Assembly (NCBI GenBank): GCA_046156195.1
Contig: JBJXEX010000429.1
Location: forward strand, 6,882-70,881
Length of the DNA: 64,000 bases
Direction: 5' to 3'
Origin: Planctomycetaceae bacterium
Lineage (GTDB): Bacteria > Planctomycetota > Planctomycetia > Planctomycetales > Planctomycetaceae
Below the pieces are notes generated by a model, which saw only the letters and a list, made by a program, of their open reading frames with translations, did not search any database and was not told where the DNA came from. A program made the translations under genes and the position numbers. Shown in pieces: positions 23,501 to 61,051 of the stretch (positions are counted from its first letter, which is position 1; each line of letters starts with the position of its first letter).

Positions 23501-23678
23501 AGACCAACCCCGGCCCGATCGTCATTACGCAGCGCTCTTCCAGCGACTCGGCCTGAGCACCGACGACAACGGGGCCGCGTAGCATTTTCGCGTGCTGTTG
23601 TGGGGTGAGTCGTTTCTGGCGGCGTTTCGGAAAGCGGATTTTTCGGGAAAGAGTGCGCAACCAAGGAGTGAAGAACAT
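1..23678 (-). CDS. Giant secreted multidomain protein, truncated at its 3' end by the window edge (>7,892 codons). Order: basic N-terminal leader with ESLEER motif, PPC-like domain, M10/metzincin domain, beta-helix modules, cadherin-like tandem modules, C-terminal RTX-type Ca-binding repeats
   Basis: Absent from the ORF track because there is no stop inside the window. ATG at 23678 (minus) is preceded by AGAGG. Hand translation gives MFFTPWLRTLSRKIRFPKRRQKRLTPQQHAKMLRGPVVVGAQAESLEERCVMTIGPGLVSV... The same frame (top base of each codon = 2 mod 3) gave sensible protein at every point I hand-translated: 23678, 22079, 21419, 20954, 19559, 17957, 17474, 12719, 10175, 7439, 629 and 98. The track lists no complete minus-strand ORF longer than 142 aa in 1-23700, as expected if this frame stays open to the edge. 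Confidence 0.85.
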   Translation of the reverse strand, partial: MFFTPWLRTLSRKIRFPKRRQKRLTPQQHAKMLRGPVVVGAQAESLEERCVMTIGPGLVSVTPNIGLFLNPTGTDIRTDAPRELTFQFSPGQAIDTSTLGTSSTPGGIQIFRSGQDGGFNFSKATSAAIDFGPADFTFTATRVGTEGNRIQLHVLSGNVGTAVPDIRRVGDNIFITLNNQVGVETTAQHLLDALAADTDASGLVTATFTGASGQALTVPASAVISLGGANDTSQQLLLPAYIDRLSAAEPNKVIYRFAQTTPDDHYLIEVHGADVRAHAFSDFGTSGAVWLGFEAVASGPGQDVAVSFLTNPAAATAIPLVATNVAMRTVTITLSSNAANLTTANGLVTALSANALIRANLMSLTATGITPIVTAGATTATPATLSLSNSSAAPAIRSGANFFGDGVDDQLQFELDLAAQVISVVPQPVTRLPSGALSQASDQIQVYFNNDDLIDTSIAAENPAFYQLYDTKGTADATDDTIALPMSVAYDPTQDLATLTFASAIPTGTFRLQIGTSPEDDSTRGNAVQLGTLFAGAPAYTTTAFLGDDGNRQNDVDLYEFKLFAGGTITAAVTPVGGVTGNDTYLRLFNNSGTELQFANGVGNGTVDTLTSAVLDAGTYFIGVSSSGNNVYDSGASPTSTPVLGTTTGSYRLDINVPTSVTTQLSLTNNSLSSTTFFVSPADAARLPVVDALATTVDFTIQIGTEQMGVTHVNVPTGALTVVRGLLSGGAPSVHSAGDIVTVIQNADDNSSYDFATNVGELGNASRSLTGAITPQSWVTLPAFPGDDGEPGHRDVPAENHGSSAGALGVRTFGFPGTYSGGLPNLITEGQKELTRQILELFSRHSGIRFQEVAESLGPSIQMISGDLTVIGIPNTVPGVASGGQVLMNFAALGGDDIYQGGWFGVAIHELGHAVGLGHAYDLHAFMGGGTVTETPGGEHDYVHLNRIYPNHSTDIDLYKFSLTETGYFTAEVNSQRQTPSSPLDSALTLFRDPYATANSSFGTTGPGAVDVKFTARSAGVLGNDLNVVVTSSDHLGALNGVPTVTVTGHQINVDVDTTGTTVQAVVNAINAHPTARLLLQASFTGTATTNVGGVMSPTTIELVGGNREVISRNDDYNGHDSFIGVELSAGTYYVGVSASGNTAYDPTVSDTGFGGQTQGTYDLQLNFRASAPASQLTDSDNQSNPAASATAQTTGFDGDADGNAGGQFNFWFQTGNTIFVDKTTTASQAFPTVGSLANPYDDIDSAVRRAASRIVVPVNGPADINDGDLFVLDDGINDTRVFEFDKLGGATPVIGSNARIDLTAAMTVADVVNAITAAINTEIVADSLSNTVAVTSNTAAGLIDLTNIKSLDVKGTHGLLTASNIIRIVGNGGADGNLATEADATPYLIGVDNTPQKNPLADGTNLDVPQGVTLMIDAGAVFKLQEANIDVGTSIQGLDRQDGALQVLGTPGVEVFFTTFRNDAIGGDTDAASGGPVAGQWGGLVFRTDSDMNDNVQGDRDGADIFLNSVFHADLSYGGGQVVVNSVPDLVFTPIHIIDERPTIAFNRITNSNDAAISASPNSFEDTFDRIGPDVHGNTVTNNSVNGLFIRIETFPDQTIDKLATLARFDDTDITHVLTENLFLVGHAAGPLVTNEVQELEMLGKATGGNFTLTYNGPTFAPSASTSLPLAIGVGTSQLAENAIITTTVNTSQITTLTQTSFNVLNAGALGTDDGIVGTIDYIIRLDNEDMAVTHRVSNTLTVIRGFNNTTRAQHLALGRTVSVVSIEVTNAADLGAVDALGSSTDYIIQINGEQMAVTNATGNILTVVRGFNGTTAALHTTAMGMVRQRTIQVANSSALPTVDTDINTVDFNIAIGGIAGEQLAVTDITGNQVWVIRGINDTVAAPHAGGSAVNLATTTISLSPTASDVEIQNALERLNGIGDGNVLVTGGPFPQASISIEFVNKLGSLDILPLTVDNDPAPTAGASPLVGGAVRLNPVTKGGDLLARLGGRLTIDPGVVLKVRNARIEGERGSPLLIAEGTAENPVIFTSLKDDRFGGASGTFDSSSDGYIANPNPTTGTFTASPVSNQPGRGDWGGVIFNLGGQASFDYAQFSYAGGSVPIEGTSANFNTLEFHEADLRLTNSVFQFNASGQTGSTRNGRGNNDGATVFIRGAQPVIVDNVFQNNDGSVISIDVNSLLDVNVTDLGRSTGRSDSFTQFASNQGPLVRLNRMDNDITGFNGTLGMEIRAGEIIGQGVWDDTDIVHVIQSGRISVDNFHTATGLRLQSATDASLVVKLGQNAGFEIGRADKDGDGLLESNGDDGPLDIDDRIGGTLHILGAPGFPVVLTSVFDDTYGASLDPTGFPQFDTNNDGSTIPSVAQYWSEILIDKYANDRNVVLVNEFEGAVTNGNDLNGTLTGSSNNTSQFLGELAPNNKSADENRRSGFEIHGSIAEDDPTDVDIYSFKGEANTEVWLDIDEVNPNLNTIIEFLSSTGTILARSEDNNTLTPTGVTPLTIQKLPTLGGDFFATTSNEGGMRLFLNGTAGTTSTYFVRVRSTPFNGRSVLENNIEDTNGGLTSGEYQLQIRLRQNDEVPGVMVKFADIRYAQNGIHVQGLPYHSPLTGQVTEVGTNDATNNNATPTTAVQLGNLLQSERNNFSVGGNLTGQGDVDFYKFHIDYAKIQEIQGVNGGGKPWATIIDLDWADGFNRPDTTFAVFTDAGELVYVGRESNVADDQAAPGQLGGDVDDLSRGSGGVLDPFIGTAIFPEFSSYGPDSISPTFYYLAVVNNGRLPQAMNAYFLDTASLANTRVRLEPVNSVVRVAEDHIGFTGYTSNGNARTPISGPLLDITDTSTLSTHVRPFSFADVKLFVTQANNLFAVNPLTGTQTIDYGGLSGNTGTQDIVMRSNGVLYGYQQLDSNTGENGSQGNATAGQLVTLDTGTGTAVTVVGPDNIISGLNGSTIAFNGNANEITHTDNVEALTFRRNGPSAGEYWSLFYSVTEGSNSKLYRGNSDTGDARDVNSNNSNLGFVGEIQLAGVTTASASISNLNFYSTRPGVTGGFTVIINKADITNGQESVSVAGTTITVQTDTNPNTSQATIANLINNNGAASALISARVNANGGDVSAIANGATAIGVGTGTALNAHVTGLAYAATAAQVTAGVSGFRGSQLYGVTDTGLLLRINDATGQATVVRDFAPLGFPNFQGLSIGPQNVSDGSVNRAFHNTLFAITSTGTLVALDINGNGVTAFDTNNEVQEIHVDPASVAPTAGTFTLTFDDTGLGAVGRPLTTDPIAFNAPGSVSRNEVQTFDTGLTPSYGGTFTLTYVDDFAEISSVVDGFDDQLTTTSFQVDNDDDTFAFPATPFLIQVGGEIMRVTNSVPGATFATFTVERAVNGTAPEIHGSDANVFQLRTSNLATSLSNTVATTTVTVLINNLAGSTTLTVNDTTAFGAVNDVVTLRVDNELMLATIVDGTTFTVTRGFAATNLAQHSVNTVVTRVDATLDLQDTTVTTAFPSVATPAAPFRVRIGSEDFLVVGVTQMGVTPTTTTWNLIRGANRTTIATHNPGDVISRIQTTSGIQFNANASGASSVQSALTALAPLAGRVTVTGGPVSQTISTPAVVTFSTNDSFGWRDVPTLTIDTSELIGDEQQRLVLTPNPAFTGSGDVTLSFGGNTTGSLNISTATALDVQNALEALPSIGAGNVVVTGAGPLLNTGYTVTFIGTLQDQDVALIAVNNAGVSNNERQQLNFTGAPTGGGFTLRFGAAGPVTPTITYSATALTMEANLKAGLDSLVATVRGVGSSVTVTQTATDQYAIVFNGGNAADFDFAALQIVANSLAPAGASLTVATLENGNQGVTATETRRGLDVLMAPTITETIKGVQSVEDHLENLLSIANNNVIVTGGDLPGTVSPATPVRVTFAGGPYANQDVNLMTLNPTGLVTGVYEVATTGTIGDGTPDNFSIATGINNPTGLAFSALDFNLWHPTERRGAPDNPGHGINESFDDTRRPDMEGRMVTGGTDTRIQVEQQGGASFYFGLEEYRGDGANTNYFNYSTLSADGDVQYGIFDDEFQRDLASNPAIGSNYNLPGGAYGSLSTNTVNLSAYAASDKPTLYFNYFLDTPNVQAAAGTQVMRDSARVFASGNGGATWELIATNNQALESELPQFLSHSSTQDYGLATNLQQVQELFDTSAWRQARVDLSRYAGLANVAFRFDFSTFGKIGDSSLIGANNGEDLGQLTDNDGADADQGGDLNTDEGFYIDDIIVGFAERGELVTGTRGFNETDFDDLYSGGFAGGRANIDNSPDTPLASMFLTTTGAYQFEIRRGTEYGNQVDQDDDEVSIGFELDTNDRLVIDEVSIAPPVVETFDIPDEFNPDALQFASPFPSSAAWFKSNVASQSPTTSFRSGVLTAQFQQSIAQLTNFATGTGNLVYYARVDGAIGNTLQFFDGGTLLATTPATGATSPVFVAVSVPVTAGTHNFQWIYSKNVAGVVGDDAAFIDSISIPGSPANAPARLGDDNIEREQGMVIIEGNFIRDVSGTGIIVEEGRRDVYAAGAPSNFPYPGSIRQFPVLNTNRWVTHASIVNNVVANFGAVGIEFSGYQNDNTDTLTNAAVPIGKILNNTVYGGATRTGTGILIRNTVSPTLLNNLVANTVTGVSVDASSAAAGTEVQTTYFNNNTTDITGATNNDGQNLTSANTAGSPLFVNAATGNFYLAASVLPGSPNLAIDSSLNTLQARAPYTQITTQLGIPQQDLFAPDIDRFGQTRKDDNGTPNAGGGANIFKDRGAIDRVDPNGPTATLIVPQDNGTTVLSETATLTDLNNAANSVTVDLPTDGTVLLTEFQISLLDVGGVGVDNASVTAGAFTKDSGGSLLSHNRLVNVTRNGVPFEDYQLAYNSNTKRLILTSLTTFEPDSIYNVFLNRGQENERQRLGMAGIPIAGNFTLTFDQPGASSTLLTTIDSSTLTLTIDPARVQGTFAPGLYAAGTYILRVDDELMDVATIVGNNITIRAGGRGFGGTTAAAHQSGVDMFQILSSETTPAMGVGALPYNATAGQIQTALENLTAIVAGDVLVTGGPLSVTGTFADLEFRGAYAARPVPQLRITSSLTPSTSASVSMSTLVDGNLFGTSGGIRDIAGNRLQPNQLNGTSAFTITITDGANDPPVIGIPGIQTTAEETPLTFSAAFNNVITISDPDAFLNPTGDLQVSLSTLGGAIVSGTLTLPGTPAALGLTTGFVGEDYDGSNGTLVIRGTLAEINAALNGLIYTPTTDFVNPNGDGIANPVTGFDDMRLTIDVNDLGNFWIDPTPPITSPAPKDAITQVVLFRVTEVNDAPNFTYDAPTFNVLEGTSAAAIATAGLGFVNPFGGPATADDEVNQTLTFAVSITSGAALFAVGGQPTINSGGNLTFTLADTDVNGSAVISIVATDNGTTNGVAAPRTFTQSLTINVTAVDDAPTFQILSPVINVNEDASGLVPTLQTVAGFAFNFNDRDPGATEIQTIVSYNVTVTSGAALLNGTPVINTATGNLTYLLAQNANGTVTVDVTVTDTGSSTAPSQNTSSPALTFTIQIAPINDEPTFTLTSTSTMIVEDTVGTQTISNLVTSILEGPADEVVPQTVTMTASTLITFGNLIFTTPPTLVANGANFDLIYAIQGNTSGIATVTITATDDGTASPSPHDNVSSQTFTINVTEVPDPPVANNDLYVVPYDPALALGVALFSPTAGLVNGTITTTDARGTVTPAEPFDNGVLANDTDNDVGSSLNTAVVVANGAIGTLVFEAAPVVPGTGGRFTYSINAGSHPTLMDTDTITYNAFDDTGTSSTSPGTVTIQLNRAPVINNQTRTLAENSVALTALTGGAIVGSDTGAFFNGFTFSITGGNTGNTFAIDANTGVITVADPTLLNFEVTPQFNLMVRVTDNAPAIARLADEATVTINLVDIVENMIVNPADFVAAAAHDITLKIDTDNRLHVYRTGSTVDLVPAHNPNTVNQVVITAENGFSNKLTIDYNGSVSLSDASPIPFGNPVSTTGVVFDGGSGLGSDTLELINGTVTSVTHNFFTSSSGTVVVVDDFPAAGSSHTVSYVGLEPILDTLTATNRTFNFSGVNDDVTLVASGTAGRNVISTPVASPTSEIVTFTNPVAGGSLTINTGDGTDTLRLTSVDGGFAATVVVTVNGGSAPVGTFDSLFGRVSAVNAFAITTANDTGTLTNGTLVTNFASFENLTGGTGNDSFRLGEVAGVAFGVTGRIDAGTGSSDSLSYQPYTAANAATVNLMTGSATNVFGGAVGGITGIDSVVGGAGNDTLIGHNLVNGWSVTAAQTGSLVNTNGTFSFAAVETLIGGTGTDTLTGPNLVLANDWNLTGPAAGTGNITGVISFQSMENLAGNANTDTFRFTGGSVSGTVSGGSGLDALNYSGVAGPVSVNLSNSSANLINGGLANGFSSIENFTGSASAADTLRGTDSTTLWDITSDNAGTVGTIPFASFEHLVGGAGQDTFQFADNRVVSGSINGGGGTTDAATFAAYNSAVSVNFSTSIVTVTGPTRTFGISAIESVTGGNSASDSITGHNQVNAWNINAMDAGTLTNTSGAFTFSRFETVNGSASFDDSFTLGASGSLRGSLNGFSGSDKLDLSAIVADRNFLLTGIPDATGYAGSETAITGGYTGINEIVVKNAPSDTLTGITGRDATWELGVLGNPTQYRYIDQSGVALKFSGFERLSAAAGARNNFLVTGNQSFDLVGSTAADLFQLNNGAILSGTVDGMGGNDTLSVTSASSAQTITLTAINASSGSGFDGTLTPSLNSVSSPTFRGIETIVGGNGNDTLVGLPTAPANWTASTTGIYTAAGATLTFSKIDNLNGGSDVDTFNISGSQNVNLNGGGGDDVFNFADGAVLGGSLVGGLGNDTVSFLGSTSVSIALDRFSGIETLIGGSGNDTLTGLITGSTFNVTGSNSGVAGSTVFQSFENLTGSGGADTFAFTDSGSLSGVLDGGLGSDLLNFTAMTGPRDVLLTGTGASDGFDGNESVIGGGFRNINAINGSSSATTDQLTGLDIGSGAVASWTIGATQMYFANGRQLAFSGFDTLTGGTGIDEFTISGARTGSLRGGADSGKDTFTFSLGATLAGGIDGGAGTDTINFSSLTTTVAVALTVNAPDGFGGTATPLLGGGTFENIDTLTGGGSGFDSLTGLDDNAAWEVDGTNRYGNPGPTVDDGTTFLSFSAFENLNGGAFNDVFRMTGAPQTVNLAGNNGDDEFIVEGNGGVNGTIAGGDGTDTLDLSAKLGNQTINISSLSSLENVFANAATSNTLVATATTANIFSIDGTNSGTVGSIGFSGFQNLTGGSSTDDFLFQDGGSISGTINGSGGNDTLNFASATASKAFTLSAVNSLDGFNGSVASAVTSFLSINALVGSSDSNDSVLGFAATATWTSSGSSVNYVATKTINLSNFEKLVGGSLVDTFNISGATDLHTIDGGAGNDIINASAATSTALLFALIGGSGDDNIQGSLGNDDINGGSNTAVISSTVGGDVLLQTADVDQTLTATTLEGFGNDLIAGFEKAILTGGSSGNVIDASGANFNVTLLGLGGDDFLFGGSGNDFLDGGADNDSLSGAAGIDTLDGNAGEMDSVSGGLGNDDLRGGAGLSDVVVEDGFSGTVTVTTTTLTGSLGSDKLTGIEAASLTGGAGNDILNAVGFGTFSATLNGGGGNDVLTGGTGANELNGGDGDDQLTGGTGNDTIDGGNDIDTLIESGNVNMTLTDSDLTGGLGTDSVSNIELAKLTGGTSANTLNASGFSGSVTLVGSSGDDFLTGGSQGDSIDGGAGIDKLFGNDGNDTIRGGTENDQIEGGNDNDDLNGQAGDDKVLGQAGDDTISGELGKDTLEGGADTDRLNEKQTVLSTITTFTLTNSSLTGSLGSDAVKEFELVVLTG
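6250..8270 (-). repeat. Tandem ~120-aa cadherin-like / 'tandem-95'-type Ig-fold modules inside the giant protein
   Basis: Hand translation of 7439-7021 reads FTQSLTINVTAVDDAPTFQILSPVINVNEDASGLVPTLQTVAGFAFNFNDRDPGATEIQTIVSYNVTVTSGAALLNGTPVINTATGNLTYLLAQNANGTVTVDVTVTDTGSSTAPSQNTSSPALTFTIQIAPIN. Module junctions of the (V/I)NDAP / NRAPV / PDPPV / NDPPV kind are seen near 6250, 6650, 7025, 7385, 7745 and 8270. Confidence 0.65.
9780..10180 (-). other. Right-handed parallel beta-helix (PbH1-like) segment of the giant protein
   Basis: In-frame translation from 10175 reads IEREQGMVIIEGNFIRDVSGTGIIVEEGRRDVYAAGAPSNFPYPGSIRQFPVLNTNRWVTHASIVNNVVANFGAVGIEFSGYQNDNTDTLTNAAVPIGKILNNTVYGGATRTGTGILIRNTVSPTLLNNLVA. 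The repeated NNxV/GxGI rungs are typical of the pectate-lyase/NosD-type fold. Confidence 0.55.
12020..12990 (-). repeat. Unnamed repeated modules ending in the motif (V/I)Q(N/S)AL..L..IG.GNV.VTGG
   Basis: Verified in-frame translations: NANASGASSVQSALTALAPLAGRVTVTGGP (12989-12901), GGNTTGSLNISTATALDVQNALEALPSIGAGNVVVTGAGP (12719-12601) and TIKGVQSVEDHLENLLSIANNNVIVTGGDLPGTVS (12104-12001). A fourth copy lies at 17957-17881. Confidence 0.6.
17290..17957 (-). other. GNVxVTGG-type module followed by a beta-helix-type module with a GDWGG motif
   Basis: In-frame translations: ASDVEIQNALERLNGIGDGNVLVTGG (17957-17881) and VSNQPGRGDWGGV (17474-17436). By-eye reading between them gives ...GRLTIDPGVVLKVRNARIEGERGSPLLIAEGTAENPVIFTSLKDDRFGG... 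Confidence 0.5.
19141..19560 (-). other. Second beta-helix-type module with a GQWGG motif (paralogous to 17290-17880)
   Basis: Verified translation: GADGNLATEADATPYLIGVDNTPQKNPLADGTNLDVPQGVTLMIDAGAVFKLQEANIDVGTSIQGLDRQDGALQVLGTPGVEVFFTTFRNDAIGGDTDAASGGPVAGQWGGLVFRTDSDMNDNVQGDRDGADIFLNSVFH. Confidence 0.5.
20880..21200 (-). other. Metzincin (peptidase M10 / serralysin-like) catalytic domain inside the giant protein
   Basis: Verified translation: ...ITEGQKELTRQILELFSRHSGIRFQEVAESLGPSIQMISGDLTVIGIPNTVPGVASGGQVLMNFAALGGDDIYQGGWFGVAIHELGHAVGLGHAYDLHAFMGGGTV. HELGHAVGLGH (20954-20922) is the HExxHxxGxxH zinc signature. Confidence 0.8.
21960..22080 (-). other. Core of a PPC (pre-peptidase C-terminal)-like domain, N-terminal to the metzincin domain
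   Basis: Verified translation: FAGAPAYTTTAFLGDDGNRQNDVDLYEFKLFAGGTITAAV. The D-x-D-x-Y-x-F...G pattern is typical of PPC domains. The full domain extent was not determined. Confidence 0.45.
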
Positions 23679-24068: not shown

Positions 24069-24980
24069 TTACGAACGGAGTTCTTTCACCCGTCGCAATT
24101 CAGCTTCAAGCTCCAGAAGTTGGTTAGCGACAGCCGTCTTCAGACGTTCGTAGCCGGTTTCGGTCAGTTCGCCGCTCGCGTGGAGTTCGTCATAACGGAC
24201 GTCCTGGGCTCGCAGATCGTCCAGACGCTGTTCCAAGTTCTCGATTCGCTCTTCTGTGCGTCCCTGCGTACGTCCTTCCGTGCGTCCTTCCGTGCGTCCT
24301 TCGAGGCGTCCTTCGGCCGTCCATCGGGCTTTGAGTTGTTGGCCCCAAGGGAGTTCTTCGACTTCCGGGAGTTGCGTGACGATCATGGTTTGGATCTCCT
24401 CAAGCGTCTTTTTCAGCCGTTTCATCAGCCAGAAATGGAACACGTTCAACCAGGTGGCACGCTGCGACTCAGTCAATTCCTGAGTCGCTCGTAGATTGTC
24501 GTAATCGTCGGCGGCGGTGGAAGTCAATTCGGCCTCGGTGGCGGCGGTCAGCGGGCGCAGAACGCTCAGCAACGGCGAGTTCGGATCGGTTTGCTGAAGT
24601 TGCTCGATCAAATCTGGCAAGTAGCTTACTTGAGGGCAAAACATCCCGCCGTCATCGACCGCCACCGATTCGAAGGTTCGATCCAGATAAATCACATGGC
24701 ACCGCAGCGATTGATGCGGGTGTTGAACTCGGAACAGCCCGCAGCGAACCATCAACTTGGGAAGAAACTGTTTGTCTCGATACCCGTGAAACTCAACGAT
24801 CCGAACCGGTGTGTCATTGTCAGGAGACACCAGCTCAACCACCAGGTCCGTCGATGTCTCCAATTCTTTGAAGGTTTCGGATCGTGCCCGAACCTCGCCG
24901 GGCACCGGCAGCCTCAATAGCAGGTACAGCTCCGCTGGAGCCACCGAGAAAATCTGATTCAATTCCTTGTCGGTATTCAC
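24069..24980 (-). CDS. Rpn-family / DUF2887-type PD-(D/E)XK putative transposase-nuclease with a DUF4351-like C-terminal region and coiled-coil tail
   Basis: Track ORF 24069..25352. From VNTDKELNQIFSVAPAELYLLLRLPVPGE...VRIVEFHGYRDKQFLPKLM...CHVIYLDRTFE the layout matches DUF2887/Rpn proteins, and WGQQLKARWTAEGRLEGRTEG resembles DUF4351. I place the start at GTG 24980. The upstream 124 codons are Arg/Ser-rich and would overlap the neighbouring gene's 3' end. Confidence 0.55.
   Translation of the reverse strand: MNTDKELNQIFSVAPAELYLLLRLPVPGEVRARSETFKELETSTDLVVELVSPDNDTPVRIVEFHGYRDKQFLPKLMVRCGLFRVQHPHQSLRCHVIYLDRTFESVAVDDGGMFCPQVSYLPDLIEQLQQTDPNSPLLSVLRPLTAATEAELTSTAADDYDNLRATQELTESQRATWLNVFHFWLMKRLKKTLEEIQTMIVTQLPEVEELPWGQQLKARWTAEGRLEGRTEGRTEGRTQGRTEERIENLEQRLDDLRAQDVRYDELHASGELTETGYERLKTAVANQLLELEAELRRVKELRS
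24254..24322 (-). repeat. 12-nt in-frame tandem repeat encoding (EGRT)n
   Basis: The plus strand shows cgtcc recurring at 24259, 24271, 24283, 24295 and 24307 (period 12). The protein reads RLEGRTEGRTEGRTQGRTEER. Confidence 0.8.
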
Positions 24981-25143
24981 GCGACACCCCAAATTCACGA
25001 CCTCAGAACTGGCTCGGAGCCTAGGAAACGTCTGCCTTATATCGTTATCGCCGTAGGCGATGTTTTTCTGCAAGATTGTGGCGTGACGCTCCGCGTCGCG
25101 ACTCACGACGCGGAGCGTCGTGCCACATTGCGGCTTCGCCGCG

Positions 25144-26394
25144 CTACGGAGTTCTCCGCCGCAGCGACGCCGGTTGCACGATCTCTGGATTGACTCGGCT
25201 ACCCGCACTCTTTGGCCGAGCGATCGTCGCCGACTCAATGCGTGAGAACGGGCTGGGAGCGAATTCGGATCGGTCACTAGAAAATCCCGCTTGCACCGTC
25301 GAGGCTGGTTCGAGAGGACGACGCAATTCGGGACGGCTGAGATGTGAACCACGCGGCTGACGCGGTTCGTGAGACACGTTGGCCACGGCTCCGATCGACT
25401 CGTTTGGGACCGACGTCGAAGCCAGCGAATCTACGGAGCTTGCTCGGCGTCGCGCTTCAGGAGCCGCGACGGCCTCTCCGCGAGTGGCCACTTCTCCACG
25501 CGGTGCCACGGAATGGCCAGAGGTCGTCGCCGCCAACTCAAGGTCGTTTGGCTTCGGGCGAGAGACCACCGGCTTGCTATCGGGATTCTGCGAACGGACG
25601 ATCGGCGGTGACGTCGTGGCGGCAATCAAATCACCGTCGGGAAGTCGCAGAGACGGACTGCCGGAGATGACCCAAGTGCTCCACTTCGATTCCAGCGCTT
25701 CCACGCTCTCCTCTTCATAGTGCCGCCGCAACGAGGCATCCCAACCCGACACATGAGCGTCCTGCATGAACGCCAGAAACCGGCTCTTGCCACCCTTCTG
25801 GACCAGGAAATCGGCCAGCGAATAGCCCTCGGCATACAACGTCAAGACGTGCTGCATGTTCTTCGGGTATTCGGTGATGCTCAACAACTCGCGCAGCGGA
25901 ATGCGACGTTTGGAGGGCATGACCTCTTCCGCAAGTTTGCGTTGGCGGCCACGTTCCGAGTCCTCTTCCGCGAGCGTTGCGGCTCCTTCATCCGCCCAGC
26001 GTGGCAGCGGGCGACGGAAGTGACAGGCGAAGATCGTGTGACTGACTTCGTGCGGGATCACCGAATCCAGAATCCGTTCGAGCGAGCCTTGGACAGTCAT
26101 GTCCCAGCCATAGACCTCGCCGCCGGCAAATGAAAACGTCGTCGCTCCGCCGGCTCCGAATTGGCCGACCTTCACCCGGACTTGGCACGGCTTGAACCAA
26201 TTCGGCAATTTTTTACCGAGCCATTCCACGGCCAGGTCTTCGCGGCAGCGTTCCGCCGTCTGCGCGACTTTGGCCGCAATCGCGGCGGTCGGCGCTTCGA
26301 CCTCAAAGTTCGGCGTCACATGCTTCGCGCCGAGTCCACTCAACAAAACCAACAATCCAAACCAACGACACAGCACCGCATCCTTGTGGGCCAT
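25144..26394 (-). CDS. Secreted HExxH protein (peptidase-MA/DUF1570-like fold suspected) with a long low-complexity C-terminal tail
   Basis: Track ORF 25144..26454. The second Met (ATG 26394) begins a signal-like MAHKDAVLCRWFGLLVLLSGLGA. HEVSH is encoded at 26052-26038, followed by PRWADEGAATLAE. The last ~150 aa are Ser/Pro/Arg-rich. Confidence 0.6.
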   Translation of the reverse strand: MAHKDAVLCRWFGLLVLLSGLGAKHVTPNFEVEAPTAAIAAKVAQTAERCREDLAVEWLGKKLPNWFKPCQVRVKVGQFGAGGATTFSFAGGEVYGWDMTVQGSLERILDSVIPHEVSHTIFACHFRRPLPRWADEGAATLAEEDSERGRQRKLAEEVMPSKRRIPLRELLSITEYPKNMQHVLTLYAEGYSLADFLVQKGGKSRFLAFMQDAHVSGWDASLRRHYEEESVEALESKWSTWVISGSPSLRLPDGDLIAATTSPPIVRSQNPDSKPVVSRPKPNDLELAATTSGHSVAPRGEVATRGEAVAAPEARRRASSVDSLASTSVPNESIGAVANVSHEPRQPRGSHLSRPELRRPLEPASTVQAGFSSDRSEFAPSPFSRIESATIARPKSAGSRVNPEIVQPASLRRRTP

Positions 26395-26756
26395 TCTGAG
26401 CAATTCCTCATCCTTGAGTATCCCCCTCAAGTGGTTTCCGGCGAACAACAGCAAAGCCCAGTCCAGCCGTCAGCCACTTCGAAACTTCGACCAAAAACCT
26501 CCGATCCAACCGTTGACTGACCCTCCGAGGCTGTGATGTTTTGAGTAGCTGAAGTCGTGAGACTTCAGGGATCGCCGAGAAAACTGAACTCTCACGAGTT
26601 CAGCTACCAATGACTTCGCCACATCAGAGACTCAGGCGACGGACTTCTCGGATCGCCTCTCAGAGCACTCCTTTGAAAATCTTGCACGCTCACTCGACCA
26701 ACTTTGCAAAGCGAATTCACAAATCGAATTCACCACAACCACTGGAAGGGAAGGTG

Positions 26757-26828
26757 CCCGACGAATGAAGGGAGACGACGAATGTGTCCAACGACTGTGA
26801 CATTCGTCGTCTCCCTCCATTCGTCGGG
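26757..26828 (-). terminator. 29-bp-stem hairpin 7 nt downstream of the stop of the M50-HlyD gene
   Basis: Arms 26757-26785 (cccgacgaatgaagggagacgacgaatgt) and 26800-26828 (acattcgtcgtctccctccattcgtcggg) pair with one mismatch; the loop is 14 nt. There is no clear U-tract. Confidence 0.5.
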
Positions 26829-26834
26829 CCTCTT

Positions 26835-29117
26835 TCATTCGCCAGAGGTCCACTCCGCCGAAAACGTATGTCGCAGCAGACGCCACAGTCGCGAAGCCAG
26901 TGACAGCGTGCCGCAATCAATTCGAGCTTGCCCCGGTGAATACAGCGCGGTGGCAGATTCATCGGTCATCCGTACACGGACTTCGTAAGAGATTTCAGCG
27001 GGAGTTGCTCCGGCGCTCGAATGCCGCACGGCCGCCAGTTGCGTGACCGTCAGTTCGCGAGGCACGGTTTCCGTCCGCGTCGAGGCCACCTCTTCGACGC
27101 GTCCCTCGCGCACTCGGCCGGGAGCTGATTGGAGCCGCAAGCGAACCGTTTGACCGAGACGCACGAACTCGACCGCGTTCTGATCGACGAGCAACACCGC
27201 ATCTTGCCGCGCCGGATCGCCGACGTAGCAAAACAGAGTTTGCTCATGAACGGTCGCGCCGCGATTGACCGCTTCCAACGGTGTGCCATGCCAGTCGGGC
27301 AACACTTCTTCCGCTGGCGGCGTGCGAGCGAGATTCGGCGGCGGCAGCACGATCCCGTCCGCCGGACTCTTCAGTCGCAGACGTTGCACTTCGTCGCCGA
27401 GTTGTTGCAGTCGTCGCTTGGCACTGACGAGCGCGTCGCGAGTCGTGGGGAGTCGAATCGCCGCCGATTCATTGCTGCCGCGCTGAGCTTCCAACGTCCG
27501 CATCCGAGCGCCCAGCCGTGCAACCTCGGCGGATTGACGTTCGTGCTGCAACAGAACTTCGTGGTTGGAAAGGACTCCGAGAGATTGCCCCGCTTCCACT
27601 CGCGTCCCAGCAGCAAGAGCCGATTCGATCCGGCCCGGCACCGTCACGAACACCGGTTGTGCGTCTCCGGGAAAGACCACGAACGGAGCGCTCACAGAAT
27701 ACGGCAGCGGGATCAGCAGCAACGCGGCGAGCAACACTCCGCACACGGCCAGTCCCTTTCGCAAGCGGTGCGGCGACAGCGTTTGATTCGCATACCGCTG
27801 ACGGATACGCGCGACGAACTCGCGCAGCGGCGCGACCACCGCTCCCACCACCAACGTCACGGACAACCCCGTCGCGATCAGACCGAGTCCGCGGCCGAAG
27901 AAGTGATGCAGAAACCACACGATCCCCACCGTCACGAACAGCCGATAGACCGCAGAAGCCACTCCGTAAACGACCAGCGTCCACCAGCGCTGCGAATCGA
28001 GTTCGATCTCTTCGTCGCTGACTCCCACGACCAATCGTTCGCACAGCGACATCACCGTTTGCCGAGCTTGCATCGCCAAGTTCGGCAGGTTGAGCAAATC
28101 GGCCAGCACATAATAGCCGTCGTAGCGCATGAGCGGATTTCCATTGAACAGCAGCGTGTTGACCGAGCAGACCAGCATCACATTCAAGAACACCGAGTTC
28201 AGCAACCCCGGCACGCTCTGCCACCACAGCAGTGTCGCGACCGACGCCAGCACCAGTTCGACGAAGATGCCCGCCGCCGAAATCGCGATCCGCGGCCAAC
28301 GCCGAGACACCATCCACGCATCCGTCACATCGCCATACAGCAGAGGCACGAACATCAGGACTTGGATTCCCAGCTCATGGCATTCGCCACCGAAATGCCG
28401 GCACGTCAGCACATGCCCGAACTCGTGCAGCAGTTTGATGACGATGAACGCCGCGACCAGCGACAGCAGATTCCCAACGCCGAACAATTCCGTCGCATCG
28501 GGCAGTCGCCGCGCCAGCGTCTCCCAACGAAGCATCACTAGCAGCAACGCCCACACGATCAACGACACGCAGGCGGTCACGAACGCTGGCCGGAAGAGCC
28601 AACTCGTCCAAGGTTCGATGCGCCGCAGCCACGGTTCCGGGTCGATCCCGTGCCAACGAATCGCCAGCACATTCGTCAGCGCGCTCCACTTCGCTCGTTG
28701 TCGAGTTCGCTCCTGCTGCCGCGAGAGTAAGCGGCCTTGTCCCGGTCGCAGCGACGACACCAAACCCGACTGCACCAACGATCCAACGAATGATTTCAGA
28801 TTGTCGATAGACCACGGTTCCGCCGGAAACTTGCGGCGCAGCGATTCGAGCATCTGGCCGTAAGTCACGCGCCCATCCAGCAACGAGAACACGGCATACT
28901 CGGCCTCTCGCAAACGGAAGTAGGCCAGTGACAGCGGATCTTTCAAAGTCCAACCCGCGTCCTCGCCGCCGGCACTCGTGCGAGCAATCAGATCGCGGCG
29001 CATCCGCCACGGGATGATCGCATCAGGGGTTCCGGTGGATGACATGACGGTGAATTGCTGGTTGGACGAGTGAGCCGAACGCGCTAGCGTCGGGCCGGGA
29101 CGGATTAAGCGGTTCAA
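26835..29117 (-). CDS. Fusion protein: N-terminal PqqD/RRE-like domain + polytopic M50 (site-2 protease) domain + C-terminal HlyD-type periplasmic adaptor domain
   Basis: Track ORF, 760 aa (TTG start at 29117; alternative ATG at 29045). N-terminus: WTLKDPLSLAYFRLREAEYAVFSLLDGRVTYGQMLESLRRKFP (PqqD-like). HEFGH is at 28427-28413, inside hydrophobic segments, followed by NPLMRYDGYY. C-terminus: lipoyl-like hairpin, short coiled coil, LKSPADGIV and a beta-barrel-like ...VEFVRLGQTVRLRL..., as in HlyD. Confidence 0.75.
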   Translation of the reverse strand: MNRLIRPGPTLARSAHSSNQQFTVMSSTGTPDAIIPWRMRRDLIARTSAGGEDAGWTLKDPLSLAYFRLREAEYAVFSLLDGRVTYGQMLESLRRKFPAEPWSIDNLKSFVGSLVQSGLVSSLRPGQGRLLSRQQERTRQRAKWSALTNVLAIRWHGIDPEPWLRRIEPWTSWLFRPAFVTACVSLIVWALLLVMLRWETLARRLPDATELFGVGNLLSLVAAFIVIKLLHEFGHVLTCRHFGGECHELGIQVLMFVPLLYGDVTDAWMVSRRWPRIAISAAGIFVELVLASVATLLWWQSVPGLLNSVFLNVMLVCSVNTLLFNGNPLMRYDGYYVLADLLNLPNLAMQARQTVMSLCERLVVGVSDEEIELDSQRWWTLVVYGVASAVYRLFVTVGIVWFLHHFFGRGLGLIATGLSVTLVVGAVVAPLREFVARIRQRYANQTLSPHRLRKGLAVCGVLLAALLLIPLPYSVSAPFVVFPGDAQPVFVTVPGRIESALAAGTRVEAGQSLGVLSNHEVLLQHERQSAEVARLGARMRTLEAQRGSNESAAIRLPTTRDALVSAKRRLQQLGDEVQRLRLKSPADGIVLPPPNLARTPPAEEVLPDWHGTPLEAVNRGATVHEQTLFCYVGDPARQDAVLLVDQNAVEFVRLGQTVRLRLQSAPGRVREGRVEEVASTRTETVPRELTVTQLAAVRHSSAGATPAEISYEVRVRMTDESATALYSPGQARIDCGTLSLASRLWRLLRHTFSAEWTSGE

Positions 29118-29179
29118 AGGCCCGAGGCTAGCGCCGACGGCTCACCGGATTGGTACGTTTTCATCTGCCGCTCGCCCAA

Positions 29180-30304
29180 CTATCGTCCACCGGTCTTTGC
29201 GGCGGCGTTCGTCGCCGTGCGGCTGGTGGGGTCAATGATCATTTCGGCTTGCAGACCGGGACGTAGCGAAAGATCGGGATTCTCGACTTCGGCCCAGACT
29301 CGGACTTGGGCATTGACCGGGTCGATCTCCGGGCTAACGAAGATGATTTTCCCTTTGACGACGATTGGCTTCTCCTCTTCCGATTGTTGCACCAGCACTC
29401 GCACGGCCGCCCCGCGTAGTGAGCCGGTGATGTGCCGGCTATCGACGAAGCCTTCGACCTTCAGCCGATCGAGGCGGACGACTCGCAACACGCGCTGACC
29501 CGGTTCGAGCCACTCGCCGCGATGCCGCAGCGTCTCGACCACGACGCCATCCAGCGGCGAACGAATCTGTCGCCGAGCCAATTGCAATTGTGCCTGTTCG
29601 ACCGCGCGGGCCTTCACGTCGCGAGTCAGCGCATCGACATCCTTTTGCATCTTCGCTTGCTCGACCGCCAGCTTCAGACGCGCGACCATTTGATCTTGTT
29701 CGGTGATGGTCGAGTCTTCAATTTGCTTTTGCATTTGTGCGAGCGACTGCTCGAACTCCGCCTTTTCGATCTCCAACTCGTTTCGTTCCAGGATCAGCCT
29801 CAAGCGGTCCACCTCGGTCAGCGAGACGCTCTTCTCGAACGACTTGCGAGCCTGCACGGCTCGGTCAAATTCCACTTTGGAGGAGTCGCGGGACTTCGTC
29901 GCGTGCCGGACGGCGACATTGTTCTCCGCCTTCATCGTTGCGATGCGCTGGGCGATGCCCGCTTGAGTGCGATCGTGCTCGGCCTCTTTCAACAGAGCTT
30001 CCGCCGTCCGAACCGGCAGCGTGTTCTTGGCTTGCCGATCGGCGATGTCCAAATCCAATTCCGCGCGAGCGACCGCCAGCTTCGAGTCTTCGGCATCCAT
30101 CTGGCCGAGCACCTGTCCGGCTTTGACGAGATCCCCATCGCGAACATCAAGCCGTTCCAGCACACCCGCCTCACGCGCGGGAATCTCGGCTTCATCGAGC
30201 ACTCGGATCAGCGCCGATTGCACTTTGATCGGCTCACCCGCCGAGACTGCCAGCGCGTTCACGGAAATCGCTAAAACGGTCATTAGCAATCGGGCAGTCA
30301 TCAT
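29180..30304 (-). CDS. HlyD-family / membrane-fusion periplasmic adaptor protein
   Basis: Track ORF 29180..30337 starts at GTG. ATG 30304 follows GGAGA and begins the signal-like MMTARLLMTVLAISVNALAVSA. It has a lipoyl-like hairpin (AREAGVLERLDVRDGDLVKAGQVLGQMD), a long coiled coil, IRSPLDGVV and a beta-barrel region. Confidence 0.8.
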   Translation of the reverse strand: MMTARLLMTVLAISVNALAVSAGEPIKVQSALIRVLDEAEIPAREAGVLERLDVRDGDLVKAGQVLGQMDAEDSKLAVARAELDLDIADRQAKNTLPVRTAEALLKEAEHDRTQAGIAQRIATMKAENNVAVRHATKSRDSSKVEFDRAVQARKSFEKSVSLTEVDRLRLILERNELEIEKAEFEQSLAQMQKQIEDSTITEQDQMVARLKLAVEQAKMQKDVDALTRDVKARAVEQAQLQLARRQIRSPLDGVVVETLRHRGEWLEPGQRVLRVVRLDRLKVEGFVDSRHITGSLRGAAVRVLVQQSEEEKPIVVKGKIIFVSPEIDPVNAQVRVWAEVENPDLSLRPGLQAEMIIDPTSRTATNAAAKTGGR

Positions 30305-30325
30305 TGTTCTCCGTACGGTGAAGCC

Positions 30326-30393
30326 GGGGTCAGGCACTTCGGAAATTCGGAATTGGCTGGGGCCAATTTCGAATTTCCGAAATGCCAGACCCC
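30326..30393 (-). terminator. 31-bp imperfect-stem hairpin 7 nt downstream of the lutB stop
   Basis: Arms 30326-30356 (ggggtcaggcacttcggaaattcggaattgg) and 30363-30393 (ccaatttcgaatttccgaaatgccagacccc) pair with 3 mismatches; the loop is 6 nt. It covers the GTG at 30337, which supports ATG 30304 as the real start of the next gene. Confidence 0.5.
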
Positions 30394-30400
30394 TGAGCGG

Positions 30401-31761
<1,361 letters not shown>

Positions 31762-31765
<4 letters not shown>

Positions 31766-32010
31766 CGGAGCCACACATCCCAAATTCGGACAAGACGATC
31801 TGGCTCGCTGACCTCAAAGACAACTGCCAACGGCGAAATGAAAAAGACGCGATCGCCGAAAAATGGGTGTCCCATCAGTTCCGGAGAGTGGCGCAAGATT
31901 TCGTCGAACTGATCCGATGCCGCTTGAACGGCCTCGCGATCTTCGGAGTCCAACCAAATTCGAGCGAGCTTCGCCTCTGCATCGGGACGCCACGTCACCG
32001 TGAATCGCAT
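31762..32010 (-). CDS. ParE/RelE-superfamily-like toxin (small, 82 aa)
   Basis: MRFTVTWRPDAEAKLARIWLDSEDREAVQAASDQFDEILRHSPELMGHPFFGDRVFFISPLAVVFEVSEPDRLVRIWDVWLR. The size and pattern resemble ParE-type toxins (A..L..IW, P..G, PL.V.F.V...DR.V.I). It overlaps the upstream small gene by 16 nt. Confidence 0.5.
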
Positions 32011-60906: not shown

Positions 60907-61051
60907 GTTGTGCGGTGCTCCCAGGTTGCCCCAGCCGGCCTGATGACGCTCGGTCCCACGCACTCACACGAACGATGCGGCTGGTGCCTTTGCGAAGAGT
61001 GACATGTTGCCACTTTTCGAGTTCTCAGTCATCCACGTCAGGAGCGAAGTC

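Follow-up and report, generated by a model that had tools for sequence, protein, structure and literature searches.

A split planctomycete gene module joining a domain of the leader-recognition type, a site-2 protease and membrane-fusion adaptors, with large leader-bearing proteins as its likely substrates

Two adjoining genes on the minus strand of a 64,000-nucleotide stretch of planctomycete DNA (contig JBJXEX010000429.1 of the Planctomycetaceae bacterium assembly GCA_046156195.1; the whole stretch is called the window below) encode a plain periplasmic HlyD-type adaptor and a fusion protein in which a peptide-recognition domain, a site-2 protease (S2P) and a second HlyD-type adaptor are joined. 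The explanation that best accounts for the observations overall, to which we assign a probability of roughly 0.55, is that the pair belongs to a conserved multi-gene module that was split by an inversion and that would trim the leaders of large proteins and export them. The two genes almost certainly represent the plain-HlyD and protease–HlyD components of a locus described from genome sequences by Kamneva, Poudel and Ward (PLoS One 2015; PMC4452313). The recognition domain is of the kind known as the RiPP recognition element (RRE), RiPPs being ribosomally synthesised and post-translationally modified peptides, and the pair is laid out as follows:

26835 to 29045, minus: RRE-S2P-HlyD fusion, 736 aa from the ATG at 29045
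28752 to 29009, minus: cytoplasmic RRE (PqqD-like winged-helix) domain, residues ~13–98, fold from an AlphaFold2 model
27699 to 28586, minus: seven-transmembrane S2P (M50-like) core, from invariant motifs and transmembrane prediction
28413 to 28427, minus: HExxH motif (HEFGH), H207/E208/H211
28116 to 28145, minus: NxxPxxxxDG third-ligand motif, N301...P304...D309/G310
26901 to 27698, minus: periplasmic membrane-fusion (adaptor) domain with lipoyl, alpha-hairpin and beta-barrel parts
29180 to 30304, minus: plain HlyD/RND_mfp-type periplasmic adaptor, 374 aa from the ATG at 30304

The union of three such parts in one protein, which the earlier note had read from the letters of the sequence, is borne out by structural models, invariant motifs and profile matches. 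Modelled alone, the N-terminal 126 residues (predicted local distance difference test score, pLDDT, of 83, against a mean of 84 for the whole fusion) form three beta-strands followed by three helices, and the nine best Foldseek matches in the PDB are all RRE or PqqD proteins, with target template-modelling scores up to 0.73, so that an RRE-like fold is indeed present. Among the matches are PqqD (5sxy, E = 9e-4), the TbiB1-leader complexes 5v1u and 5v1v (target scores of 0.70–0.73), TfuB1 (6jx3, like TbiB1 a leader-bound lasso-peptide RRE), CteB and, further down, SkfB. A sequence-profile comparison with the PDB also puts TfuB1 and PqqD first, although only at marginal E values (0.06–0.3), and Pfam PqqD (PF05402) reaches no more than 13 bits on the fusion (E = 0.14), under its cutoff of 23.4. 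The domain is nonetheless conserved among the homologues of the fusion, some of which do carry PF05402 or the name 'PqqD family' from the NCBI annotation pipeline PGAP.

The HEFGH motif of the M50-like zinc protease lies where it had been placed, and both HExxH and NxxPxxxxDG are invariant in all 44 aligned fusion homologues, which are 36–88% identical. Hydropathy gives seven transmembrane helices with both catalytic motifs inside them, at the cytoplasmic ends of the second and fourth, and this topology puts the N-terminus of the fusion in the cytoplasm and its C-terminal domain in the periplasm. Curated models score the fusion weakly: Peptidase_M50 (PF02163) stops at 24.5 bits, short of its 27.2 cutoff, and HlyD_D23 at 21.7 bits, though many homologues are precomputed as PF02163 and the adaptor fold is clear by other means. 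The C-terminal ~290 residues of the model match MacA (3fpp, 2.4e-12) and also AcrA, MexA and ZneB by Foldseek, and their sequence profile matches MacA (4dk1, 2.3e-11) and EmrA (7e-10). All the elements of a membrane-fusion protein (MFP) are present behind a transmembrane anchor: a lipoyl domain, an alpha-hairpin (helices at residues 495–520 and 526–554) and a beta-barrel. A further cluster, C-x-H-x-G-G-E-C-H-E at residues 215–224 (28380–28403), sits in the cytoplasmic loop just past HExxH; its C215, H217, C222, H223 and E224 are invariant or nearly so in the same alignment and may form a second metal site, and we found no description of such a cluster in S2Ps.

The plain adaptor was correctly recognised in the earlier note as a conventional member of the HlyD family: it matches HlyD_3 (6.7e-17), HlyD_D23 (1e-14) and TIGR01730 RND_mfp (113.5 bits, above the 94.9 cutoff), and it begins with a hydrophobic signal or anchor sequence (MMTARLLMTVLAISVNALAVSA). 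It lies upstream of the fusion on the same strand, with a spacer of 62 nt between the reading frames as mechanically called, which run from a GTG at 30337 to 29180 for the adaptor (385 aa) and from a TTG at 29117 to 26835 for the fusion (760 aa), both on the minus strand. The fusion likely starts at M25, the ATG at 29045, and its database copy (P0001) has 736 aa; the adaptor most likely starts at the ATG at 30304, which has a GGAG 5 nt upstream, and the longer reading from the GTG at 30337 is overlapped by a hairpin. A doubt had been raised that the fusion might be two genes merged by a frame error. This is ruled out by thousands of collinear homologues of ~740 aa: more than 2,391 were scored at full length in one database, and an exhaustive HMMER search for the fusion family gave, at E<=1e-3, 12,373 cluster representatives, of which 4,127 remained at E<=1e-30. 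Where RNA runs were checked for expression, the sequence was present in DNA metagenomes only.

MacA, AcrA, MexA and EmrA are the best structural matches of both the fusion C-terminus and the partner, with lipoyl, hairpin and beta-barrel parts in common, but these proteins work with pumps of the ABC, RND or MFS type, and neither a protease nor a cytoplasmic domain for sensing or recognition is joined to them. It might be supposed that the M50-like transmembrane bundle has lost its protease function and acts as a transporter for small molecules or lipids, given that the C-terminal domain of the fusion and both of its partners (the plain adaptor and the GAF-HlyD protein considered below) share the fold of drug- and metal-efflux adaptors. 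Such a loss is very hard to square with catalytic motifs that are kept without exception in divergent homologues, with the conservation of a peptide-binding-type RRE domain and with the absence of any known energy-coupling fold, and we regard efflux as highly improbable.

Among characterised proteins, those closest to the N-terminal half are site-2 leader peptidases of RiPP pathways with an RRE fused to them. Residues 66–438 find their best family match in the daptide_HExxH peptidase MpaP (NF041824; E = 6.7e-49, model positions 28–375 of 379), at 167 bits and thus below the family cutoff of 300, and the next family is YydH/LiaK (NF058609; 1.4e-13). The daptide enzyme is described in the literature as an RRE-dependent type of leader peptidase. 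MpaP/DapP and YydH/LiaK are intramembrane M50 leader peptidases of RiPP pathways, RRE-fused or stand-alone, and the fusion shares with them the N-terminal RRE and the HExxH motif; it differs in its low score, in having neither a precursor peptide nor MpaB, MpaC, MpaD or MpaM genes beside it, in an extra periplasmic adaptor of ~290 aa and in its neighbours, which are adaptors, TolC and giant proteins. Since the RRE fold is in addition a hallmark of RiPP pathways, a bacteriocin-type system might be considered, in which the RRE-S2P portion trims a small peptide encoded elsewhere and the adaptors pass it to an unlinked ABC exporter. The gene neighbourhoods of the family, together with a score so far under the cutoff, make this unlikely. 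Across 90 homologous loci (84 of them non-redundant, almost all from Planctomycetota), clustering of intergenic open reading frames (ORFs) of 25–110 aa in the 84 loci gave no conserved small precursor, with only the shadow ORFs of close relatives grouping together; no daptide genes (mpaA-D or mpaM) recurred in the module neighbourhoods; and when ORFs of at least 90 aa in the flanks of the 84 loci were clustered, no ABC, RND or MFS pump and no tailoring enzyme recurred. The neighbours that do recur are giant proteins.

What the clustered ORFs of at least 90 aa did contain repeatedly were three module genes, a TolC-like outer-membrane efflux protein (OEP) and, in particular clades only, lutB and SGNH genes. 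The canonical operon, found in 55 of the 90 loci, runs from a GAF-GAF-transmembrane-HlyD protein (~680 aa) through a plain HlyD (~310 aa) to the fusion, and most loci that depart from this order belong to the clade of the window, in which the module is split, or end early on the upstream side. A plain HlyD directly precedes the fusion in 74 of the 90 loci, and the OEP lies divergently upstream in 11. The neighbourhood comparison that the earlier note had proposed therefore turned up conserved partners but neither a co-occurring small ORF nor an ABC transporter, and the pair, which that note took for a discrete two-gene operon, belongs to a conserved set of four or five genes, of which it makes up one half, the GAF-HlyD and OEP genes having been parted from it by an inversion.

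This gene set has already been recognised in silico. The passages of Kamneva, Poudel and Ward (PMC4452313) that treat it describe a conserved locus of 'secondary SecA_DEAD + type-I-secretion-related proteins' in Planctomycetes and Proteobacteria, made up of a peptidase_M50/HlyD cluster, a plain HlyD/biotin-lipoyl cluster and a GAF/HlyD cluster, sometimes with an OEP adjacent and with no ABC transporter. They call its role 'completely unknown', suggest that the M50 protein forms a membrane pore and the SecA fragment acts as the ATPase, and neither name a substrate nor mention an RRE or PqqD domain, so that the concern that the fusion might belong to a characterised family with a known substrate does not apply. 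The window contains the M50-like protein fused to HlyD and the plain HlyD adjoining it, and differs from the published module in having no GAF-HlyD, OEP or SecA_DEAD gene within its 64 kb; tblastn with OEP and GAF-HlyD homologues found none. Its sole ABC protein is EttA, an ABC-F translation factor, and the earlier note was thus right that the window holds no outer-membrane factor and no ABC pump. What the window adds to the gene set known from that work (PMC4452313) is the split form. In the searchable literature we found no paper that brings HlyD together with both M50 and PqqD, with a site-2 protease, or with peptidase M50 and Planctomycetes at once. One planctomycete metagenome-assembled genome (MAG), JAIOQB01, carries two complete copies of the module (loci L077 and L078), and paralogous systems therefore exist inside one genome.

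The GAF-GAF-HlyD protein carries two cytoplasmic GAF domains, which suggest ligand sensing, and site-2 proteases act classically in regulated proteolysis (RseP, SpoIVFB). A signalling or quality-control device could be built from these parts, with the S2P cutting a membrane regulator by regulated intramembrane proteolysis or clearing remnant peptides, the GAF protein as its sensor and HlyD as a tether to the outer membrane, and the report that the GAF gene is expressed separately (PMC4452313, in its treatment of the locus) would suit such a device. Yet no sigma factor, anti-sigma factor or regulator gene recurs in the neighbourhoods surveyed, the three MFP domains carry hairpins of the type that docks to TolC, an OEP is repeatedly adjacent, and in several genomes a SecA-like ATPase with a preprotein-binding domain stands in the same operon. 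Taken together, these observations leave a signalling role improbable.

The split itself can be followed by comparison of gene orders. All relatives of at least 69% identity (69–88%) have the same SGNH-LutB-HlyD-fusion order as the window, and the next relative (L023, 63% identical) has an intact OEP/GAF-HlyD/HlyD/fusion order followed by a giant leader-bearing protein. In three MAGs with the split form a second contig holds the OEP, the GAF-HlyD gene and LutC (loci L095–L097), the OEP being divergent to GAF-HlyD there as it is in L023. When this other-half region of a relative (L096:5543-10588) is compared with the window (30304–31783) and with L023, the gene orders indicate that the module was divided between two loci by one ancestral inversion, whose breakpoints fell at GAF-HlyD|HlyD and LutB|LutC; such an event would account for both new junctions and for the orphan lutB of the window. 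The features at the ends of the pair are:

30401 to 31783, minus: lutB, apart from lutC, marking one inversion breakpoint
30326 to 30393, no strand: upstream hairpin with 32-bp arms, between the lutB stop and the adaptor start, at the inversion junction
26745 to 26840, no strand: downstream hairpin with a near-perfect stem of ~30 bp, directly past the fusion stop codon

There is reason to think that the other half of the module persists in the same organism. The window derives from a biofilter metagenome, and in two runs of that metagenome contigs at 14–15x, close to the 17x of the window, cover the OEP, GAF-HlyD and LutC genes. These contigs are 84–87% identical to L096, and the window shows the like 84–88% identity to L012, a locus of the MAG to which L096 also belongs. 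From this match of both depth and divergence, the OEP/GAF-HlyD half is very probably present in the genome of the window. It is most doubtful, to the point of near-exclusion, that the pair is a functionless remnant left to decay once the inversion had taken GAF-HlyD and the OEP away. Decay might be suspected from the physical division of the module and from the transposase-like Rpn/DUF2887 gene and the dispersed repeats nearby; but both ORFs are intact with all invariant residues kept, the split is old and retained in every relative of 69–88% identity with both halves preserved, and the missing half occurs in the metagenome of the window at a depth that agrees with that of the window.

The two hairpins are genuine and fold with great stability (-54.4 kcal/mol, z = -11, for 30326–30393; -66.1 kcal/mol, z = -13, for 26745–26840, which is not followed by a U-tract). 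The earlier note took them for the boundaries of an operon, a role that does not survive comparison with the source metagenome. Assembler contigs from four samples break at the hairpins, the summed depth goes up by a factor of 5 to 17, and the flanks attached are numerous and differ from one another: at 30326–30393 the depth climbs from ~17x to 130–290x with many differing loose ends, and at 26745–26840 it reaches 150x, with variant copies that have a different loop. Such breaks, depth jumps and flanks mean that the hairpins are multi-copy members of families of dispersed palindromic repeats and not a private operon boundary. The region of the 62-nt spacer (29098–29178) is likewise multi-copy in the source metagenome, and the GAF-HlyD|LutC junction of a relative (L096:9941-9980) behaves in the same way, with contig breaks and raised depth. 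Within the 64-kb window and the retrieved loci, no further copies were found beyond a 25-nt match to an arm of the downstream hairpin at an unrelated intergenic site (in L006, of the L006/L022 pair). The hairpins may still terminate or stabilise transcripts, and they may have mediated the inversion. Contigs of two runs also join window position 26783 to 29070, skipping the whole fusion gene with only 25 nt on the short side; this is probably an artefact of the repeats, the alternative being a population variant without the fusion gene.

If the module exports proteins, its cargo might be expected nearby, and in fact the statement of the earlier note that no substrate is visible was mistaken, two giant proteins in the window being candidates:

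3 to 23678, minus: giant protein 1, more than 7,892 aa, leaving the window; candidate cargo with a weak motif match
61004 to 64000, plus: giant protein 2, more than 999 aa, leaving the window; candidate cargo with a clear motif match

Large proteins that recur beside the module have a basic N-terminus without a hydrophobic core, followed by [LI]ExRx(L/V)L, a pattern like that of the LEPR-XLL domain. A hidden Markov model built from 22 module-adjacent leaders of other genomes, none of them from the window, was run on the heads of 160 window ORFs and placed giant 2 first (E = 1.9e-4) and giant 1 second (E = 0.077). The leader of giant 2 reads ...RRRQRQTLRQISIESLEARILPA (61160–61207), and in that of giant 1 ESLEER (23532–23549) comes after a basic N-terminus. 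In giant 2 there are a beta-solenoid of the Ice_binding-like kind and Calx-beta domains, and nothing in Pfam matches the first 2,500 aa of giant 1. The gene for giant 1 shares the strand of the fusion and begins 3,156 nt past its downstream end, with a Peptidase_MA-like gene and the Rpn/DUF2887 gene in between. The former (25144–26454, minus) would encode a secreted zinc protease with an HEVSH motif and a weak flagellinolysin-like match, and its ORF overlaps that of Rpn/DUF2887 (24069–25352), which means that one of the two starts is over-called.

The association extends beyond the window. In planctomycete loci, the first 3 kb downstream of the fusion hold 12 convincing leader ORFs, a density of 0.57 per 10 kb, and most of these run in the direction of the fusion; the more distant flanking DNA, 576 kb in all, holds 6, or 0.10 per 10 kb, and the enrichment has a binomial P of 5e-4, or 7e-3 when related loci are collapsed. 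In annotated loci on proteobacterial plasmids a protein gene stands directly upstream of the module and co-oriented in 6/6 cases, its product being a giant in 5/6 (3,489 to ~12,900 aa) and having a basic start that leads into [LI]E[PS]R in 5/6. PGAP names the neighbour 'LEPR-XLL domain-containing protein' in Pseudosulfitobacter and Thalassospira, with genes of up to 38.7 kb; the neighbour in Methylosinus (8,847 aa) has the leader TLEPRVLLNAD, that in Azospirillum ALEPRFMFDAA and that on the Escherichia coli IncHI1B plasmid (3,668 aa) ALESRQLFDGA, and the annotated start in Magnetospirillum lacks the motif. From these patterns in sequence and gene order, the substrates of the module are likely to be large leader-bearing proteins and not small peptides. 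The link between module and leader-bearing giants is absent from the searchable literature, where 'LEPR-XLL' occurs in two papers on unrelated matters. In two alphaproteobacterial modules a small DUF3467 protein is encoded between the giant gene and GAF-HlyD (L105:9606-9902; L111:9636-9956) and may be a chaperone for the cargo; no DUF3467 gene was found in the window or in planctomycete loci.

The energy for export would probably come from a SecA-like protein. A truncated SecA of 638–674 aa with SecA_DEAD, PP_bind and P-loop_SecA matches is encoded on the Methylosinus plasmid pMSC49a (L111:14114-16030) and on a Pseudosulfitobacter plasmid (L102:11966-13990), and a SecA-like gene adjoins the module in 4 of the 84 planctomycete loci, just upstream of GAF-HlyD, and in 4 proteobacterial loci. 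The coding sequences on these two plasmids are annotated 'prepilin peptidase', likely a systematic mis-annotation of the ATPase of the module. The MAG with two modules has up to three truncated-SecA loci (one at L077 itself, L115 and L121, the last a fragment). A scan of contig collections for a truncated SecA in the clade of the window returned matches dominated by canonical SecA of many phyla.

These components suggest a route for export. Large surface proteins would carry a non-hydrophobic, basic leader that ends in [LI]ExRx(L/V)L (in the window, 'ESLE[EA]R'), and the cytoplasmic RRE would bind this leader much as the RREs of RiPP pathways bind theirs. The S2P active site, at the cytoplasmic face of the membrane, would then cut the leader off, and the S2P transmembrane bundle would help the polypeptide across the inner membrane, with a SecA-like ATPase from another locus as the probable motor. 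Three adaptor domains, docked to the OEP, would form the duct by which the polypeptide leaves. The scheme keeps the substance of the proposal in the earlier note that a peptide or protein is recognised, cut in the membrane and passed across the envelope, which still appears to be the best reading. Directly observed are the folds, motifs and topology, the order and splitting of the genes and their proximity to genes for leader-bearing proteins; from these we infer binding, cleavage, energy source and export; for export and trimming as a mechanism we would put the chances at about even.

Several points weigh against this scheme. The usual targets of S2Ps are helices within or close to the membrane, whereas the candidate leaders have no hydrophobic segment. 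For the pair no energy source came to light, a SecA-like gene being adjacent in so few planctomycete loci and none occurring in the 64-kb window. Giant 1, the sole candidate cargo near the pair, is marginal, as its E value of 0.077 is close to that of a spurious ORF (0.087), and its motif is ESLEERCVMT and not ...RxLL(A/S). With leader genes as frequent in planctomycetes as they are (~0.1 per 10 kb), some can be expected to adjoin the module by chance; the loci compared are phylogenetically related; and close relatives differ in the gene that directly follows the fusion (DUF1501, MgtC). The LEPR-XLL model NF012209 (17-bit threshold) misses both window giants and most planctomycete leaders, though it scores the giants beside proteobacterial modules, which serve as positive controls, at 29–33 bits; the window giants share with that domain ('LEPR-8K') a basic stretch followed by [LI]ExR and differ in the motif ESLE[EA]R, without Pro, and for this reason the planctomycete variants, being under the threshold, are called LEPR-XLL-like and not members. 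Finally, the family is known in silico alone.

Known secretion systems offer partial parallels. In HlyBD-TolC, LapBCE and CvaAB-TolC, which represent the type I export of giant adhesins and the ABC exporters with a peptidase of their own, an MFP and a TolC-family duct act together and the cargo gene lies beside the machine, and in CvaB and related peptidase-containing transporters (PCAT) removal of an N-terminal leader is built into the inner-membrane component in the form of a C39 cysteine peptidase. The module shares with type I secretion the MFP and TolC-family duct and the placement of its genes beside those of the cargo. It differs in having no ABC transporter in the 84 loci, in using three different MFPs instead of one, in a protease that is a zinc S2P and not C39, and in a candidate signal that is N-terminal and not of the C-terminal RTX type. 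It is possible, though we hold it at somewhat less than even odds, that the module represents an undescribed class of protein secretion without an ABC transporter, in which an RRE, a domain otherwise known only from RiPP pathways, reads the N-terminal LExRxLL/LEPR-XLL leader of giant surface proteins, an S2P fused to it cuts the leader, three different adaptors and a TolC-like channel export the protein and a truncated SecA probably supplies the power.

The module comprises more than 4,000 sequence clusters, and it evidently tolerates division between two loci, both halves being kept throughout a clade down to 69% identity; genome searches that require an intact operon would miss such genomes. 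Among the largest bacterial proteins known are ones from planctomycetes and many proteobacteria that begin with a basic, non-hydrophobic leader, and no machinery other than the module was found time and again next to their genes, in settings that range from planctomycete MAGs to the IncHI1B plasmids of E. coli. If the proposed link holds, a new type of secretion system would be defined and the orphan planctomycete/LEPR-XLL leader would gain an export route. The catalytic His and Glu, the pairing of RRE and leader and the tractable plasmid-borne versions of the module would then be testable handles, and the role of RREs would extend from the small peptides of RiPP pathways to megadalton proteins.

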